DNA of 64,000 nt from a bacterium (GTDB lineage: Bacteria > UBA8248 > JACPRG01 > G963555815): positions 480,001 to 544,000 of the forward strand of contig CBDHDG010000005.1 of NCBI GenBank assembly GCA_965261595.1. The letters run 5' to 3'. Of this stretch, positions 6,443-56,780 are shown in pieces. Within the stretch, counting starts at the first letter, position 1. Each line of letters opens with the position of its first letter. Position numbers and translations under genes: made by a program. The notes beneath the pieces were generated by a model. It saw only the letters and a list, made by a program, of their open reading frames with translations, was not told the DNA's origin and did no database searches.

Positions 6443-6486
6443 GGCGGCGCGGCGATCGTGAGAACAGGCGAACGCCCATCCCGAAC

Positions 6487-6664
6487 TGTCATTCCCGCGC
6501 AGGCGGGAATCCAGCGTTCTGAGTTGTGGGTCCATCCTCCTGCCCACGTGATCATTGAGTGGAGAAGTATACGAGAGGGAGAAGGGCTTTCGGCGCAGCC
6601 GGGGGTCGGGTTGATTGGGACCGATCTGAAGCACTTCTGGATTCCCGCCTGCGCGGGAATGACA
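6487..6664. repeat. Inverted pair of REP-like hairpins (REPIN-like unit)
   Basis: TGTCATTCCCGCGCAGGCGGGAATCCA at 6487-6513 and its exact reverse complement at 6638-6664. Confidence 0.85.
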
Positions 6665-6798
6665 AGCGGGGGGCGTTGCAGAATGACGGCGGACTGTCAA
6701 GGTTCAGGGGATCGCCCGTCAGCGCATGAATCACGACTGACCCTCTGGGGCTTCGTTTCTTCAAGTGCCGAAAACTGGGGATCACTGGGGAACGGACA

Positions 6799-15860: not shown

Positions 15861-15893
15861 CAGGCTGCCGAAAAACTTCTTCGAGCTTGAACA

Positions 15894-15989
15894 GATTCCT
15901 CACGCGGGTTGGTTGACCCTCGTTCGGAATGACAACTTTGAGAGGTGAGTGCACCCACGACATGTCAGTCCGAGCGGTGCGCAGGAATC
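15894..15989. repeat. Two REP-like TGTCATTCC...GGAATC hairpins in opposite orientation
   Basis: 15894-15934 (reverse complement TGTCATTCCGAACGAGGG...CCCGCGTGAGGAATC) and 15963-15989 TGTCAGTCCGAGCGGTGCGCAGGAATC. Confidence 0.75.
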
Positions 15990-16123
15990 CGTCCCTGGGA
16001 TTTGACAGCCAAATAATCCGGTGGCGGGGGATTCAGGTTCAACGGGGTTCATCCCAAACCGCACCCAAATAGGATGAAATTTCGATAGCGTTTTCTTCCC
16101 CCTTCCCCTCCCCTGAAATAAAT

Positions 16124-51126: not shown

Positions 51127-52284
51127 TCACCTGGTTTCTTTTTCTGAACTTTGGTGGCGGGAAAATGAGACATAGGGCCCCAGGACGCCTTTTGCGGGGG
51201 ACCAGACGACGGCCCTTCTCCCTCTCTTCCATTGGACGAGAAGAGGAGCGCGCGCGCCCAAGGGCCTGCCTGTGGTCGGATCGATTCGGAAGGGACCCAA
51301 GAGGGTCGAGCACCGAAGAGTGGAAGCGGCTTCACGCAAACGTGCGGGATTTCCCCGTCCCGCCAGCTCGAGGCATCGTGCGGCGATGAGACAGGCGGCG
51401 TAAGCCTGCGCCCCAGGATAATCGGCCGAACCACCCAAGCGGGCATTGAGCCGGTCGGCGAATTCCTCCGAGCCCAAGCCCAGATCCGGCCGATGTCCGC
51501 CTTCCACTTCCCACTGACTCGGGCCCAGGAACCCCTCCGCGCTTTGACCCAGCGCTTCACCGAAGGCCGACGCCCCAGCCGCCACCAACGCGACCGCCCG
51601 CGGCTTGAGACGCACTTCCCGCAGGGCGCGTGCGAACGCCAAGTCCTCTTCGAAACGGCCCGCTCCCAGTATCAGGTCAGGCTCGAGGTCTCGAAGCTCG
51701 ACTGCAAGGCGGTTGAGGTCGATTGTGGATACGGGATAGGGTCTCTTCAAGACGACCTCGAATCCCTTCTCGACCGCCCACCTGAGCGCGCCGTCCGCGA
51801 TGGCGGCGGGGAAGCCGCCACGCGCGCCGTAGAGAAGAGCGACCCTCACGCTCGCAAGGCCGCCTTCGCGCACCCATTCGAAGACGCCGCGGAAATAGGT
51901 GCTCGCCGGCGGGGCCAACCCCACGAGGAATCGGAATCCCCGCTCGTAGAGGGTGTCCGCCGACCCTCCATGGTTCCAAAGCGGAATCTTGAAGGACTCC
52001 GCCACGAGAGTGGCGGAGAGGGTCAGCGCGCTCGAATAAGGACCGAGCAGGATTTCGACCCCTTCAGCCCTGATAAGTTTCTCGGTATTGCGGGCGGCTG
52101 GGTCGCGGGCGCTCCTGTCATCCAGAAAGAGAAGATGGGGGAGATCCTTCTCTCCACTTGGGGGGATTGAGATTCCACCTCCTTGCTTCACTTCCTCGGC
52201 CCAACACTCGATCGCGGCCCGGGCCTGTTTGCCCATGGGAGAAAAGGGACCGCTGAGGGAGAGAGACGCCCCGATTCGAAGCAT
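51127..52284 (-). CDS. LivJ/K-type periplasmic-binding-fold protein
   Basis: IGASLSLSG, DDRS, LLGPYSS. Confidence 0.85.
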   Translation of the reverse strand: MLRIGASLSLSGPFSPMGKQARAAIECWAEEVKQGGGISIPPSGEKDLPHLLFLDDRSARDPAARNTEKLIRAEGVEILLGPYSSALTLSATLVAESFKIPLWNHGGSADTLYERGFRFLVGLAPPASTYFRGVFEWVREGGLASVRVALLYGARGGFPAAIADGALRWAVEKGFEVVLKRPYPVSTIDLNRLAVELRDLEPDLILGAGRFEEDLAFARALREVRLKPRAVALVAAGASAFGEALGQSAEGFLGPSQWEVEGGHRPDLGLGSEEFADRLNARLGGSADYPGAQAYAACLIAARCLELAGRGNPARLREAASTLRCSTLLGPFRIDPTTGRPLGARAPLLVQWKRGRRAVVWSPAKGVLGPYVSFSRHQSSEKETR

Positions 52285-52443
52285 CAGGCCTGCACCAGTT
52301 TGTGAAACATGGGGTCAGAATCGAATCCACCCCTCAAAAGCGCGCGCCTTCATCGGGCGACGCGGATACCAAGATGCCGGAGAGCGCCGGGCGATGCAAG
52401 CGTGAATCGGAGGACGGCGATCGATGTGCATGGGGCCGACCAC

Positions 52444-52734
52444 CAGGCGTTGAAGTCCTGATCCGCGATTCAAGATTCAAGATTCAAGACGTGACCGTTC
52501 CTCCTTCCCCGGAAGACGGAAGGTCATCGGCGCTCCTTCGCCGTGCCGGACGCCGGTCGGAAGCCTGCGGGGGTCCCCGCCTCTACATTTCAAAGCGGGG
52601 TCCGTACCCGCTCTTTACTGGCCCCATCCCACTTGCTAATCTGTTGGAAAGTGAGAACCGACCACGTTTCTTTTTCCGTCGTGCCATCGCAAGATCGGAT
52701 ACAATACAGAATCTTATAATTGAAGACCTGACCC
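52444..52734 (+). repeat. About 300-bp direct repeat, copy 1
   Basis: Colinear with 53412-53714; ends in AAGACCTGACCC. Confidence 0.9.
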
Positions 52735-52773
52735 TATTTCTTTCTCTAATTCTTTCTTGACCCTAATTCTTTC

Positions 52774-52799
52774 TGTCATTCCGAGCGTAGCGAGGAATC
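52774..52799 (+). repeat. REP-like hairpin
   Basis: TGTCATTCCGAGCGTAGCGAGGAATC. Confidence 0.85.
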
Positions 52800-52839
52800 G
52801 CGCCTCGATTAATAGCAAAGCTTTCCTACCGCGATTTTC

Positions 52840-53187
52840 ATGACCACCATGCGAGCGTACTACGTCTACATCCTGACCAACCCCTCGGGGACCCTTTATA
52901 CCGGCGTCACGAACGACCTTAAGCGGCGGGTCTGGGAGCATAAGCAAAAACTCGTTTCTGGATTCGCTAAGAGGTACAACGTTTCAAGATTGGTTTATTT
53001 TGAGGAGACTTCGGACGTTTATGCGGCCATATCGCGTGAAAAGCAGATCAAGGCTTGGCGGCGGGAGAAAAAGGTCGCGCTCATAGAATCGGTCAACCGG
53101 GATTGGCGCGACTTGAGTGCGGATTGGTTTGAGGACCAAGGACTTTCTCTTGGATCGAGGCAAGATTCCTTTCTGCGCTCGGAATGA
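52840..53187 (+). CDS. GIY-YIG nuclease (UPF0213/YhbQ-like)
   Basis: YYVYIL...LYTGVTNDLKRRVWEHK...REKQIK. Confidence 0.93.
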   Translation: MTTMRAYYVYILTNPSGTLYTGVTNDLKRRVWEHKQKLVSGFAKRYNVSRLVYFEETSDVYAAISREKQIKAWRREKKVALIESVNRDWRDLSADWFEDQGLSLGSRQDSFLRSE

Positions 53188-53189
53188 CA
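53164..53189 (-). repeat. REP-like hairpin, inverted copy overlapping the GIY-YIG stop
   Basis: Reverse complement TGTCATTCCGAGCGCAGAAAGGAATC, 23/26 identical to the 52774 copy. Confidence 0.85.
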
Positions 53190-53295
53190 CCCGTTGGATC
53201 GCAACGGGGATGAGCATTCCGTGGATTGATGGCCCGGGCGTCTGGCGATGAAGGGAAATCCCTATCCTGATTCCGATTCCAATTCACACGCACAA

Positions 53296-53335
53296 TGTCA
53301 TTCCGAGTGCGGGCGACCGGCCCGCACGAGGAATC
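53296..53335 (+). repeat. REP-like hairpin, long form
   Basis: TGTCATTCCGAGTGCGGGCGACCGGCCCGCACGAGGAATC. Confidence 0.8.
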
Positions 53336-53411
53336 CCGCCTCGAACAAGGGTTGAGGGTTTCGCTGGTGGTCGAATAGTGGGCGGTGAGCGATCTGTATG
53401 GGGCCGGCAAT

Positions 53412-53714
53412 CAGGCGTTGAAATCCTGACCCGTGATTCAGGATTCAAGACCTGATCGCTCCTTCTTCCACGGAAGACGGAAGGTCATCGGTGGGCCGTT
53501 CACCGTGCCGGACGCCGGTCGGAAGCCTGCGAGGTCTGCATGGACGGGGACGGGGAAAACCCCTACATTTCAAAGCGGGGTCGCACCTGCTTTTTACTGC
53601 CCAATCCCACTCGCTAATCTGTTGGAATGTGAGACCTGATCTCGTTTCTTTCTCCGTCCTGCCATCGCAAGATCGGATACAATACAGAATCTTATAATTC
53701 AAGACCTGAACCCC
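53412..53714 (+). repeat. About 300-bp direct repeat, copy 2
   Basis: Shares blocks such as GCCATCGCAAGATCGGATACAATACAGAATCTTATAATT with copy 1. Confidence 0.9.
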
Positions 53715-54027
53715 GTGCCTTTGTGACCCCGTTCCTTTGCATTGCCGATGAAAACCATGAGATCCCCTTTCGGTGATGCCGTCAAGAGAGTTTTGAGGCT
53801 GGTGTGTTGGCAAAGAAGAGAGAGTCAGCCTCATCACTTGTCACCCGGCATTGCCTGTCTGATGGCCCTCGCCAACGGCATGCAAACCAAAGCGCCGGGG
53901 AGCGCGGGGCCGCGCAAGCGTAACCGAGAGTGCGGCGAGCGACCGGTGTCAAGTGGGGGTCAACTCCAAATAAATTATCAAGAGATGATTTGACCCGCTG
54001 TCCTATAGAATCCAGGCTCGTTTCTGG

Positions 54028-55281
54028 CTACCCAACTCTGGGAAAGGAGAGATAGAGCGTTTTTCCCTGATGATCATCTTTTTTACTATAGGAGGCCCGC
54101 CTCTTCGGATGGTCAACAAGTCCTGCCTCCTCCTCCGGGGACCACCCTAATGCGACAAGGCGGTTATTGAATGTCCCCACGCGAACACGATAATGATCTG
54201 CCGCCGCCTTATGAGATTTGAATGTAACACCCGCTATGGTAATCGCCTTTCCAGCCCGACGCTGCGGCCGGGGGGCAATGGCGAGGGCCTCTTCAACGGA
54301 CCATCCCTTCATGAGTCTTTTGCGGAATATTGTTGGCGGTATCCCGAAAGCCCTGGCAACCGCGGAATGAGAAGGGTACCGAACCCCTTCAACGATAATG
54401 GGTTTCCATAGCGGGTGAGGGGGAACAGGTTTTTGTTTTTCTCGTGCTCTCGCTGAATGTGGAGCAGTCCGTAGCGCTTTCTCTACCGGCTCGCCGTTCT
54501 TCAATCGGCGTCGAATGGTTTGGGGGCTTACGATGGCACTTTTATCGACTTCTTGAAGGCCGCCGAAGGATTCGGCGCCGGTTTCCAAATTGAGAGCCCC
54601 CTTCCCGCCGCCCCGCCTCGGTGTCAACCCGACGGCCTGCTCGGGAGTCCAGCCTAGCCATAGGCGGTTATAAAAGAGCTGGTGCGGGATGTTGAAATGT
54701 TCAGCGGCTTTAGCTCTGGAAATATAGACAACGCCATTGATAGAGATTTCCTCGGAGACGGAATCCGCGGCCGTCTCTCGTGGAGTGGATTTCCGTAATG
54801 GGTGCGCGCCGAAGGAGGCTCGGTTTCCGAGGAGGGCTTGCTTTCTCATGATCCAGTCCGGGAATATCGCATCGTGCGCGAAGCCGTTGAGCGCACGATA
54901 CGTGAAGAAGTAGGTCGGGGGCACTCCTTTCAAGTTGGTCACCTGGTCCAGGAGGAGGTGAAAGAGGTGGCCCATGGCCACGCCCCAGAGCCAGGCAGAG
55001 GCGGGATTCAGTACCGCGAGCGCCCAGAGAAGAGCGGACACTTCATACCCGTGAAGGGGCTTGTATGCAGTATCCGTGCGATAGGGCTTTCCGACGCCCA
55101 GCCGGGCCAGACGGCCCAAGGCCTTCCGCAATCCCCACGCATGGATATAATCGAAGATATAGTCCAGGTCGATGGTCCAGCCCGCAAGGAAAAAAGCCGT
55201 TCCCATTTCGGGTGACTCGGTTGCGGCGCCCACGGCGACGCCGGCTACGGCGGATGATACAGTATGGCGCACTGCATTCAT
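54028..55281 (-). CDS. Membrane metal-dependent hydrolase-like domain fused to repeated HTH-like DNA-binding modules
   Basis: RH..., IDLDY, LHGYE, GHLFHLLLD in a TM domain; four repeats of I.I.G..Y.S...AA..F....F..RL..GW..E.A. Confidence 0.7.
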   Translation of the reverse strand: MNAVRHTVSSAVAGVAVGAATESPEMGTAFFLAGWTIDLDYIFDYIHAWGLRKALGRLARLGVGKPYRTDTAYKPLHGYEVSALLWALAVLNPASAWLWGVAMGHLFHLLLDQVTNLKGVPPTYFFTYRALNGFAHDAIFPDWIMRKQALLGNRASFGAHPLRKSTPRETAADSVSEEISINGVVYISRAKAAEHFNIPHQLFYNRLWLGWTPEQAVGLTPRRGGGKGALNLETGAESFGGLQEVDKSAIVSPQTIRRRLKNGEPVEKALRTAPHSARAREKQKPVPPHPLWKPIIVEGVRYPSHSAVARAFGIPPTIFRKRLMKGWSVEEALAIAPRPQRRAGKAITIAGVTFKSHKAAADHYRVRVGTFNNRLVALGWSPEEEAGLVDHPKRRASYSKKDDHQGKTLYLSFPRVG

Positions 55282-55487
55282 GAGCGATCCGTTCCCCAAA
55301 GAGGGATGTAGCCCGAATTTCCCATTTTAACCCATATACACGGCATAACTCGAGAATTCCCGGATAACGGTTGGCGTGTAACGATTAGGTTGCCAGGATT
55401 TTGACCGCGTGTAAATGAGTTGTCCCCCGCTCTAGGGTTTTGTTGGACACTCGATTGATCCATGATTCATGGAGAAAGGGTGTCGCG

Positions 55488-55875
55488 ATGAACGAACAAA
55501 AGCAAGAGGGGGCTTTGGCGGAGGGCGCCCGTAGGGCGAACGGAGCCAAGGCCCCAGGGCATCGCAGTGAGCGGGGTCGGTTCTCCTGCCAGGCGCAAGC
55601 GGGAGGCGGTCCTGCGTCTTTTGCGGGGCGAGAGCCTGGAGACGCTCTGCCGCGAGTTGGGCACGACAGCGGCTCGGCTTTCCGCCTGGCGCGAGGCGTT
55701 CCTTCGCGGGGGCGAGGCGGCGCTCAAAGCCCGCCCGGCGGATGAGCGGGCCGAGGAGAACGCCCGGCTCAAGGCCAAGGTGGGCGAACTCACGATGGAG
55801 GGCGAGGTCCTGCGGGAGAAGATCGACCGCCTGGAGGCCGGCCGCCCTTTAGCCGGCAGGAGGTGGAGGCGATGA
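55488..55875 (+). CDS. IS3 OrfA (frameshifted)
   Basis: RKREAVLRLLRGESLETLCRELG...LKAKVGELTME. Confidence 0.8.
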
Positions 55876-56780
55876 GTCAGGCCCGCTTCACCTCCACGGG
55901 CAGAGCCTACGGCCTGAAGCGGGTGTGCGCCCTTTGGGGCTTGGCGCGCTCCACGGTCTACGCGCAACGGCGGCGAGAGGCGGTCCCCGTTCATGAACGC
56001 CCCACGCCCAATAAGCGCGGCCCTGTGGGCCCGTGCACCGATGCGGAACTCCTCGGCCACATCCGGCAGGTCCTGGAGGACTCTCCCTTCCATGGCGAGG
56101 GCTACCGCAAGGTGTGGGCGAGGCTGCGCTTCGCGGGCATCCGCACCAGCAAGGAGCGGGTGCGTCGCCTGATGCGGGAGGCGGGGCTTCAGGCCCCTCA
56201 CCGGGTGGGCAAACCCCGAGGTCCCAAGGCCCACAACGGGACCATCCGCACCGAGCGGCCCGACCGAATGTGGGGCACGCACATGACGACGACGGTGACC
56301 ACCGATGAGGGGATGGCCTCGGTGTTCGTGGCGGTGGATCACTGCTCGGTGGACTGCGTGGGGATCCATGCGGCCAAGAGCGGCAACCGCTTCGAGGCCC
56401 TGGAGCCGATCCGGCAGGGGGTCGCCGAGCGCTTCGCCGGCTTGGAGGCGGACGTCGCCGAGGGGCTTAAAGTTCGTCACGACCACGGCCCCGCCTATCT
56501 GTCCGATGACTTTCAGCGGGAGATCGCCTACCTGGGCATGACCAGTTCGCCCAGCTTCGTGCGGGCGCCCGAGGGAAATGGCTACTGTGAGTGGTTTATC
56601 CGCATCTTGAAGGAGAATCTCCTGTGGGTGCGCTCTTTCGCCACCGTAGAGGAACTGCGGTGGGCGCTGCTTGAGTTCAAGAACCTGTACAACCATCATT
56701 GGATTCTCGAGGGCTACGGCTACCGAACGCCGGCCCAGGCAAGGCAGGAAAAACTCGCTCAAGTTGCGGAGGCCGCATGA
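55872..56780 (+). CDS. IS3 OrfB transposase
   Basis: GEGYRKVWARL, RHDHG, PEGNG..E; the first catalytic Asp appears replaced (WGTH). Confidence 0.88.
   Translation: MSQARFTSTGRAYGLKRVCALWGLARSTVYAQRRREAVPVHERPTPNKRGPVGPCTDAELLGHIRQVLEDSPFHGEGYRKVWARLRFAGIRTSKERVRRLMREAGLQAPHRVGKPRGPKAHNGTIRTERPDRMWGTHMTTTVTTDEGMASVFVAVDHCSVDCVGIHAAKSGNRFEALEPIRQGVAERFAGLEADVAEGLKVRHDHGPAYLSDDFQREIAYLGMTSSPSFVRAPEGNGYCEWFIRILKENLLWVRSFATVEELRWALLEFKNLYNHHWILEGYGYRTPAQARQEKLAQVAEAA

Follow-up and report, generated by a model that had tools for sequence, protein, structure and literature searches.

The locus analyzed here lies in a window of 64,000 nucleotides of bacterial DNA, which belongs to a genome of 6.17 Mb in seven contigs (G000). 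A small gene on the forward strand, ssn (52840-53187), encodes a single-domain GIY-YIG nuclease of 115 amino acids and is bracketed by hairpins that carry the tetranucleotide tag TGTC. The left hairpin (52774-52800, + strand) consists of the tag, a 5-bp stem (ATTCC/GGAAT), GA opposite GA, a GC-GTA-GC tip and a C after the stem. The right hairpin (53163-53189, - strand) is inverted, has GA opposite AA and holds the TGA of the gene, and a third copy (53296-53336, + strand) has a long perfect inner stem beyond its GA/GA bulge (z -4.2). Four more hairpins are found at 6487-6514 (+), 6637-6664 (-), 15893-15934 (-) and 15963-15990 (+). An earlier note, made from the sequence alone, had pointed out these seven hairpins and the position of the gene between the 52774 copy and an inverted 53164 copy that supplies its stop codon. 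Both observations were confirmed: 100 dinucleotide shuffles gave a mean of only 0.05 such hairpins and a maximum of 1. A contig from an RNA run spans 52938-53182; its strand and level are not readable from contigs, and it may represent DNA.

Two direct repeats of ~300 bp (52431-52734 and 53399-53712, 80.5% identical) bracket the ssn cassette, and recombination between them would delete it. On the minus strand, both begin with a GGGTCAGGTCTTGAAT-like motif. This motif, of which the genome has ~40 copies, is similar to the GGGGWSAS ends of TIR-flanked tyrosine transposases. At a distance of 840 bp from the ssn gene lies an ORF of 423 amino acids (54028-55299, - strand) with a hydrophobic N-terminal part and a weak YdjM match, whose C-terminal repeated units match the I-TevI DNA-binding domain (E 7e-8). 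Judging from these matches, it is a homing-endonuclease-type DNA-binding module without a nuclease domain. It is followed by a two-ORF insertion sequence (55567-56780, + strand; HTH and rve integrase core), a second copy of which was found in G000 (C1:36.7-38.0 kb).

A profile search identified PF01541 as the sole domain of the GIY-YIG protein (E 6e-15). The core ends at about residue 98, close to where most near homologs stop (residue ~96-98), and the final ~17 residues are read-through into the inverted hairpin, the TGA falling within 53164-53189. A comparable tail is present in 4 of 19 aligned homologs, and at 14 of 80 GTDB loci (the best 80 of at least 594) the stop codon also lies inside the downstream inverted hairpin. 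The tail is therefore a by-product of a hairpin lying so near the end of the gene. The predicted model has a GIY-YIG fold (pLDDT 82.6) with three strands, four helices and a disordered tail. Its best match among solved structures, where no Ssn structure was found, is PDB 1zg2 (UPF0213; E 5.7e-6 by sequence and 1.1e-4 by fold).

We compared the protein with a 94-aa homolog from Neisseria gonorrhoeae, which has Y6, Y17 and E64, is surrounded by 16 NTS-type hairpins and is taken as the SsnA ortholog. The two proteins are 44.7% identical over 103 aa (E 9e-29 in a pairwise comparison), and the same match was recovered at nearly full length in a 7.3-Gb search (E 6e-19). Y10, Y20 and E67 of the window protein align with Y6, Y17 and E64 of SsnA, so that all three cutting residues are kept. 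Membership was defined as a lone GIY-YIG domain in a protein of fewer than 150 aa and a match to SsnA with E < 1e-10 over at least 75% of the length, the N. gonorrhoeae ortholog standing in for SsnA of Neisseria meningitidis, and by this comparison the window protein is a member of the Ssn family (SsnA; described as CDD cd10448, GIY-YIG_unchar_3). The earlier note had treated the gene as UPF0213-type, which is not borne out. Although UPF0213 proteins share the fold and size, they are only 33-41% identical, form an outgroup in the tree and score 55-56 bits versus 87 for the SsnA ortholog (E about 1e-16 versus 9e-29). Tagged hairpins were found at none of five loci that we class as UPF0213-like by a sequence motif.

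According to the available part of Chenal et al. (2025), the Ssn family consists of ~95-aa GIY-YIG proteins flanked by NTS/SRM hairpins. Four homologs cut single-stranded DNA (ssDNA) only, a few nucleotides 5' of the hairpin tag, and the hairpin is bound only as ssDNA; bases upstream of the stem (the 5' tag) govern cutting, and the C after the stem governs binding (PMC11893778). The window locus shares with the family, as described in that part, the small single-domain GIY-YIG protein, the catalytic residues, the SRM-gene-SRM layout and the C after the stem. It differs in its hairpin, which in the window branch has a 5-bp stem, a fixed GA/GA bulge and a tip of variable length and does not fit the published SRM pattern (0 of 3 hairpins at the window gene), and in its tag, TGTC versus CGTC in the SsnA-like set. 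As far as the accessible text goes, none of the four assayed homologs comes from the window branch (PMC11893778). The window protein very probably cuts at its own flanking hairpins.

The seven hairpins of the window fall into two types. Type A, at 6487 and 6640, has perfect 8-bp stems and matches the Neisseria NTS except for the first base; 6487-6514 is the left arm, and 6637-6664 the right arm, of a dimer within a MITE. In type B, represented by the three copies at the gene and by that at 15894, the TGTC tag precedes a 5-bp stem with GA opposite GA beyond it, the tip varies, and the stem is followed by a C. Only this type flanks the window ssn gene. The 53164 copy is damaged by its GA opposite AA, and folding predicts just its 5-bp stem. 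The 15893-15934 copy has a long loop, and the 15963-15990 copy, whose tag faces it, is a degenerate type-B-like hairpin; this pair, which the congeneric genome G001 lacks at the corresponding site, has its tags inward, the reverse of the arrangement around the ssn gene. Thus, the four additional hairpins that the earlier note had described as opposed pairs are all present, with the refinement that they belong to two types, that one is degenerate and that one pair faces inward.

Both types are dispersed in G000. The strict pattern TGTCATTCC-N(8-30)-GGAATC, whose genome-wide count had been proposed as a check, occurs 43 times in the 6.17-Mb genome versus 0 in 3 Mb of simulated sequence. Fuzzy patterns recovered 39 type-A and 37 type-B copies, and a strict structural rule recovered 34 and 26, respectively, versus 4 and 0 in the reversed genome. 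When type A was compared with the Neisseria NTS, 10 copies matched exactly and 27 with at most one mismatch. The published SRM pattern gave 88 matches versus about 56-59 simulated, and it therefore carries little information in a genome this rich in GC. Type A also fits the CGTC-1 family of Di Nocera et al. (2013) by description (8-bp stem, 4-nt loop, CCA tail). The CGTC/TGTC-tagged REPs treated in the available part of that study form four families with 8-9-bp stems and 4-5-nt loops (PMC3733652). They have in common with the present hairpins the CGTC/TGTC tag, AT at the stem base, a short tail and the occurrence of dimers. Type B shares the tag but has a perfect stem of just 5 bp, and the authors themselves remark that their families may have missed bulged members.

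To examine the association of hairpins with genes, two locus sets were assembled. The type-B set was obtained from a genome scan seeded with two branch-specific peptide patterns (the best 80 of at least 594 confirmed loci). For the type-A set, SsnA-like patterns served as seeds in metagenomes, and the best 80 of 492 loci were kept. Among the best 80 of at least 594 GTDB loci, type-B hairpins lie within 250 bp of the gene at 71 and on both sides of it at 55, and these loci cover 19 phylum labels. Their density is 4.7 per kb inside the 250-bp range and falls to 0.11 per kb farther than 1 kb away, a 42-fold enrichment near orthologous genes, as the earlier note had anticipated. The published SRM pattern, an operational screen that its authors report at 71% of homologs, was found within 500 bp of none of these 80 loci; as a positive control, it was found at 61 of the best 80 of 492 SsnA-like loci. 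The latter set carries type A at 70 loci, type B at none and neither type at 10. The tags differ as well, with TGTC in 184 of 202 hairpins of the type-B set (best 80 of at least 594) and CGTC in 147 of 169 of the SsnA-like set (best 80 of 492). At loci with hairpins on both sides, the innermost ones have their tags outward at 33 of 55 in the type-B set (best 80 of at least 594) and at 33 of 49 in the type-A set (best 80 of 492).

The hairpin detector required both pairing and the bulge, and each condition was removed in turn as a check. When the bulge rule was dropped, GA|GA was still found in 184 of 220 nearby TGTCA hairpins, and when the pairing rule was dropped, 179 of 195 stems paired fully, whereas 1000 arm shuffles gave 46 on average and 65 at most (both rules at the best 80 of at least 594 loci). 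Kinship inflates these pairing counts, although identity to the query is just 50-74% across the loci. At one stem position, T-A, C-G and G-C interchange. It is worth noting that, with standard DNA energies, the short type-B hairpins of the window are predicted to be no more stable than their shuffles (z -0.4 and -0.2); their structure rests on this covariation.

Hairpin type follows the protein tree, as the earlier note had expected of repeat and nuclease: 2 changes per label were needed on a tree of 175 rows, versus ~52 when labels were shuffled. Of the two trees built, the quick one has 107 rows and omits two loci whose translations were broken or short, and the FastTree one has 175 rows and omits L119 as well as short or duplicate rows; most deep forks are unresolved in both. 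Two exceptions were noted in the type-B lineage, one locus with a perfect hairpin only (L059) and one with both types (L067). The clade-specific seeding sharpens this two-group picture and skips intermediate lineages, the type-B 'branch' being a pattern-picked set and not an established clade. The proteins of both hairpin groups share 27 alignment columns conserved at more than 90%, and the window branch is distinguished from SsnA by diagnostic residues such as K77 for W74 and T57 for H54. The analysis shows that a widespread Ssn branch pairs with a different, GA/GA-bulged hairpin, and the enzyme probably reads this bulge.

A different reading holds that the hairpins are RNA-level or structural elements, such as terminators or mRNA stabilizers, that merely stand beside the gene, and that this protein branch ignores them. 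In RNA, tandem GA pairs and GNRA-like tips are frequent motifs, many hairpin copies lie downstream of genes, and the short copies are weak as DNA by standard energies. The same hairpins, however, occur on both sides of the gene and on both strands, have an unpaired tag and a post-stem C as in the NTS, and switch type with the protein lineage. Moreover, no Rfam family reached its gathering score in the window, 12 loci giving chance hairpin matches only, and SsnA is inactive on RNA according to the available part of PMC11893778. We therefore consider this explanation very unlikely.

The best explanation, which we hold to be probable, is that an Ssn ssDNA endonuclease and its cognate TGTC hairpins form a unit that is occasionally copied through host repair or recombination. 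The flanking TGTC-tagged hairpins would be the cognate sites of the window enzyme, which would recognize the tag together with the short stem, the GA/GA bulge and the C that follows. With tags pointing outward, the cuts would fall on one strand immediately beyond both ends of the ~415-bp hairpin-gene-hairpin unit while this DNA is single-stranded, as at a replication fork or in incoming DNA. Host repair or recombination might then occasionally copy the unit or its ends to a new site. To our knowledge, GIY-YIG enzymes hydrolyze DNA and form no covalent intermediate, with no phosphotyrosine strand transfer, and strand joining would thus need host factors. Such a unit would behave like a RAYT cassette, rarely moved and mostly inherited, and would decay to gene-less pairs, collapsed scars and single hairpins. 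Some of the hairpin pairs may later have been amplified as passengers of unrelated DDE-type MITEs.

Like RAYT/REP/REPIN systems, the Ssn system has a small enzyme gene flanked by hairpins with a tetranucleotide tag; further parallels are the cutting of ssDNA close to the tag, the dispersal of dimers and an inheritance that is patchy and mostly vertical. The GA/GA bulge of type B also parallels the internal mismatch of REPs, which the available part of Di Nocera et al. describes as required for RAYT cleavage (PMC3733652). The window enzyme differs in being GIY-YIG and not HUH/Y1 (it has no match to Y1_Tnp or NF047646), and the tags are TGTC/CGTC and not GTAG. As for gene-less dimers that would move from hairpin to hairpin, one gene-less pair was found at an orthologous ssn site, and the two amplified dimer families end at MITE termini. 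The novelty that the earlier note left open cannot be claimed for the association, the cleavage or the comparison with RAYT/REP, all of which appeared in print in 2025. In the available part of that paper, NTS-ssnA-NTS is likened to IS200/IS605 and REP-associated transposases, and a domesticated mobile element is suggested (PMC11893778). The RAYT-like idea is thus in print as a hypothesis and cleavage as a result. In the other literature searched, beyond the available parts of PMC11893778 and PMC3733652, no description of the bulged hairpin or of Ssn mobility was found. Four bulged-hairpin strings are absent from 13 of the 14 supplements of PMC11893778, and figures 2c, 3e and 5a and the remaining supplement could show such hairpins.

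It could also be supposed that a RAYT or another Y1 transposase makes and moves the TGTC hairpins, with the GIY-YIG gene as a passenger. G000 has five Y1_Tnp matches, and one of these genes has a type-A hairpin on one side, ~330 bp downstream. However, this is the only TGTC hairpin within 5 kb of any of the five, and it lies outside the terminal repeat of the Y1 element, in a MITE fragment. Three of the Y1 genes are flanked by their own GTAG-tagged hairpins, and the other two carry GGGGACACC-type ends. None of the five Y1 genes in G000 is bracketed by the TGTC repeat, an arrangement that the earlier note had named as evidence against its proposal, and the available part of Di Nocera et al. likewise reports no tyrosine transposase flanked by CGTC repeats (PMC3733652). 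In a related genus, some genomes do have RAYT-like genes at the intergenic sites where others carry ssn cassettes, as described below. The flank survey has already largely refuted this explanation, which we regard as highly improbable.

Whether the copying unit that we favor leaves traces in genomes can be judged from paralogs. A decayed ssn paralog in G000 (C4:394187-394480) aligns to the window from 52774 through 53189, i.e., from one tag to the other, and similarity continues weakly for another ~20 bases past the right one. Two type-A cassettes of one genome (L014 and L026 in G023) are 83.5% identical from -43 to +320, tag to tag, in unrelated neighborhoods, and in two type-B loci (L103 and L105) 89% identity begins at the left tag and extends ~40 bases past the right hairpin. 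Such tag-to-tag homology could also result if hairpin pairs already in place underwent gene conversion. In L014, the spacer between the second and third hairpins is inverted relative to three congeners (L018, L022 and L028), as expected from recombination between opposed hairpins.

We also traced two orthologous sites with type-A cassettes, distinct from the window cassette, through 23 genomes of one genus (g7). Site 1 (16 genomes) has ssn in four, a collapsed scar in one and RAYT-like sequence in five. Site 2 (22 genomes) has ssn in two; among 13 genomes with both anchors, a gene-less pair and a collapsed double-tagged scar occur in one each, a RAYT-like gene in another and partial remnants in three, while five show no trace. 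In the gene-less pair, the left flank is as in the ssn allele and another spacer replaces the gene. Three of the RAYT-like sequences at site 1 were translated; the one scanned there, and the one at site 2, match NF047646 just under the cut-off. At these two intergenic sites (L260-L276 and L238-L259), either an ssn cassette or a RAYT-like gene with GTAG hairpins is found, and the sites are shared insertion hot spots just behind gene ends. The series gives the impression of a single old insertion at each site with subsequent losses.

The search for empty sites proposed in the earlier note thus yielded full, gene-less, collapsed and empty alleles within one genus, but a clean insertion with an empty ancestral site was not found for any ssn cassette in the relatives compared. 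G001 lacks the region ~51210-53820 of the window as a 2.6-kb block that includes a neighboring gene, not as a precise empty site, and no orthologous site of the window cassette was found in the other four genomes of the family that were searched. In contigs of three DNA runs, no joint was seen that would take out the cassette. A backward joint from 53312 to 52774 with one extra base (depths 13.9 and 6) occurs in those of two DNA runs and is not in the assembly; it is too deep for a transient circle and more likely reflects another locus or mis-laid hairpin arms. Taken together, the relatives suggest that the unit of gene plus hairpins is occasionally copied to new sites, and the allele pattern reads as rare copying with ends at the tags, followed by long inheritance and decay. 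That Ssn cutting itself drives this copying is a more tentative proposal, to which we give somewhat less than an even chance.

The gene-less pairs that have demonstrably moved tell a different story from the REPINs that the earlier note saw in the 6487-6664 pair. The family to which this pair belongs has a conserved spacer of 125 bp (seven full and five partial copies in G000), and conservation continues for 70-125 bp past the hairpins, up to 20-bp terminal inverted repeats. The window copy (6451-6789) is truncated on the left, its right end lying at 6770-6789, and the full length is ~380-395 bp. Other copies are located in G000 (C5:352119-352514), G001 (C7, C33 and C66) and G003 (C8), the last with the same ends and a different 200-bp core; the family was found in 4 of 51 genomes searched, all of one family. 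In five complete copies of G000 and G001, the flanking 9-mers agree at 9, 8, 7, 5 and 3 of 9 positions. G001 lacks the window copy and has 65 other bases with 10 N in its place. No autonomous partner was identified among 13 end matches in G000 or at 12 loci from 51 genomes of the class.

A second dimer family consists of a 205-221-bp element with a type-B dimer and imperfect terminal repeats (G000 C6:680932-681151; L279, L281, L285, L288, L290, L291 and L292). TA is present on both sides in all seven complete copies in G001 (eight loci), and an exact empty site exists in G000 (C1:125821). In both amplified families the element extends 26-125 bp past the hairpins before it reaches a MITE terminus, and gene-less pairs with demonstrated movement have moved only as part of MITEs that show 9-bp or TA duplications. 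Terminal repeats combined with target duplications of 9 bp or of TA are marks of DDE transposition, of the IS4-like and IS630-like kinds, respectively. These features indicate that the amplified dimers spread as MITE cargo and not as REPINs of the nuclease. The 6487-6664 dimer, MITE-borne and of the other hairpin type, thus gives no support for spreading by the window enzyme.

The duplications of both families fit another account, in which the same enzyme and cleavage serve a host function, for example the cutting of incoming ssDNA, and have no role in spreading, the repeats multiplying via MITEs, hairpin recombination and horizontal block transfer. In the available part of Chenal et al., SsnA of N. 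meningitidis lowers transformation by NTS-bearing DNA, the only in vivo role shown for the family (PMC11893778). This account also agrees with the persistence of hairpins in genomes where no matching gene was found. G000 has its 39 type-A hairpins although no SsnA-like gene for them was found there, nor in G003, G004 and G006, and G001 has a fragment. In G006 (one contig, 98% complete), dozens of type-A hairpins occur and two queries found no Ssn gene, which shows that repeats can outlast the enzyme. Against a purely host-serving gene stand the patchy distribution of ssn (any match in 17 of 41 related genomes), the several sites per genus, the frequent decay and the homology of paralogs that stops at the tags, features that a selfish unit fits better than a housekeeping gene. 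We regard this account as unlikely, if far from negligible, and retain the occasionally copied Ssn unit as the favored explanation.

The published SRM pattern misses bulged hairpins, and published counts of repeats and of flanked genes are therefore underestimates. Enzymes of the bulged branch should differ in their ssDNA specificity, the property wanted of the family as a tool. The tag-to-tag paralogs, together with the full, gene-less, collapsed and empty alleles, provide genomic support for the published idea of a mobile element. In addition, cassette ends that are defined by tags bear on what makes CGTC repeats, a question standing since 2013; the available part of Di Nocera et al. describes no dedicated transposase for these repeats, and Ssn is a candidate partner (PMC3733652). 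It is possible, though on balance doubtful, that Ssn is the missing mobilizer of CGTC/TGTC REPs, the hairpin-ssn-hairpin unit then being an active element of ~400 bp that is run by a GIY-YIG nuclease in place of an HUH or DDE transposase, and the GA-bulged branch a second, parallel enzyme-hairpin code, based on the reading of a non-Watson-Crick GA/GA step in DNA and spanning at least 19 phylum-level groups.
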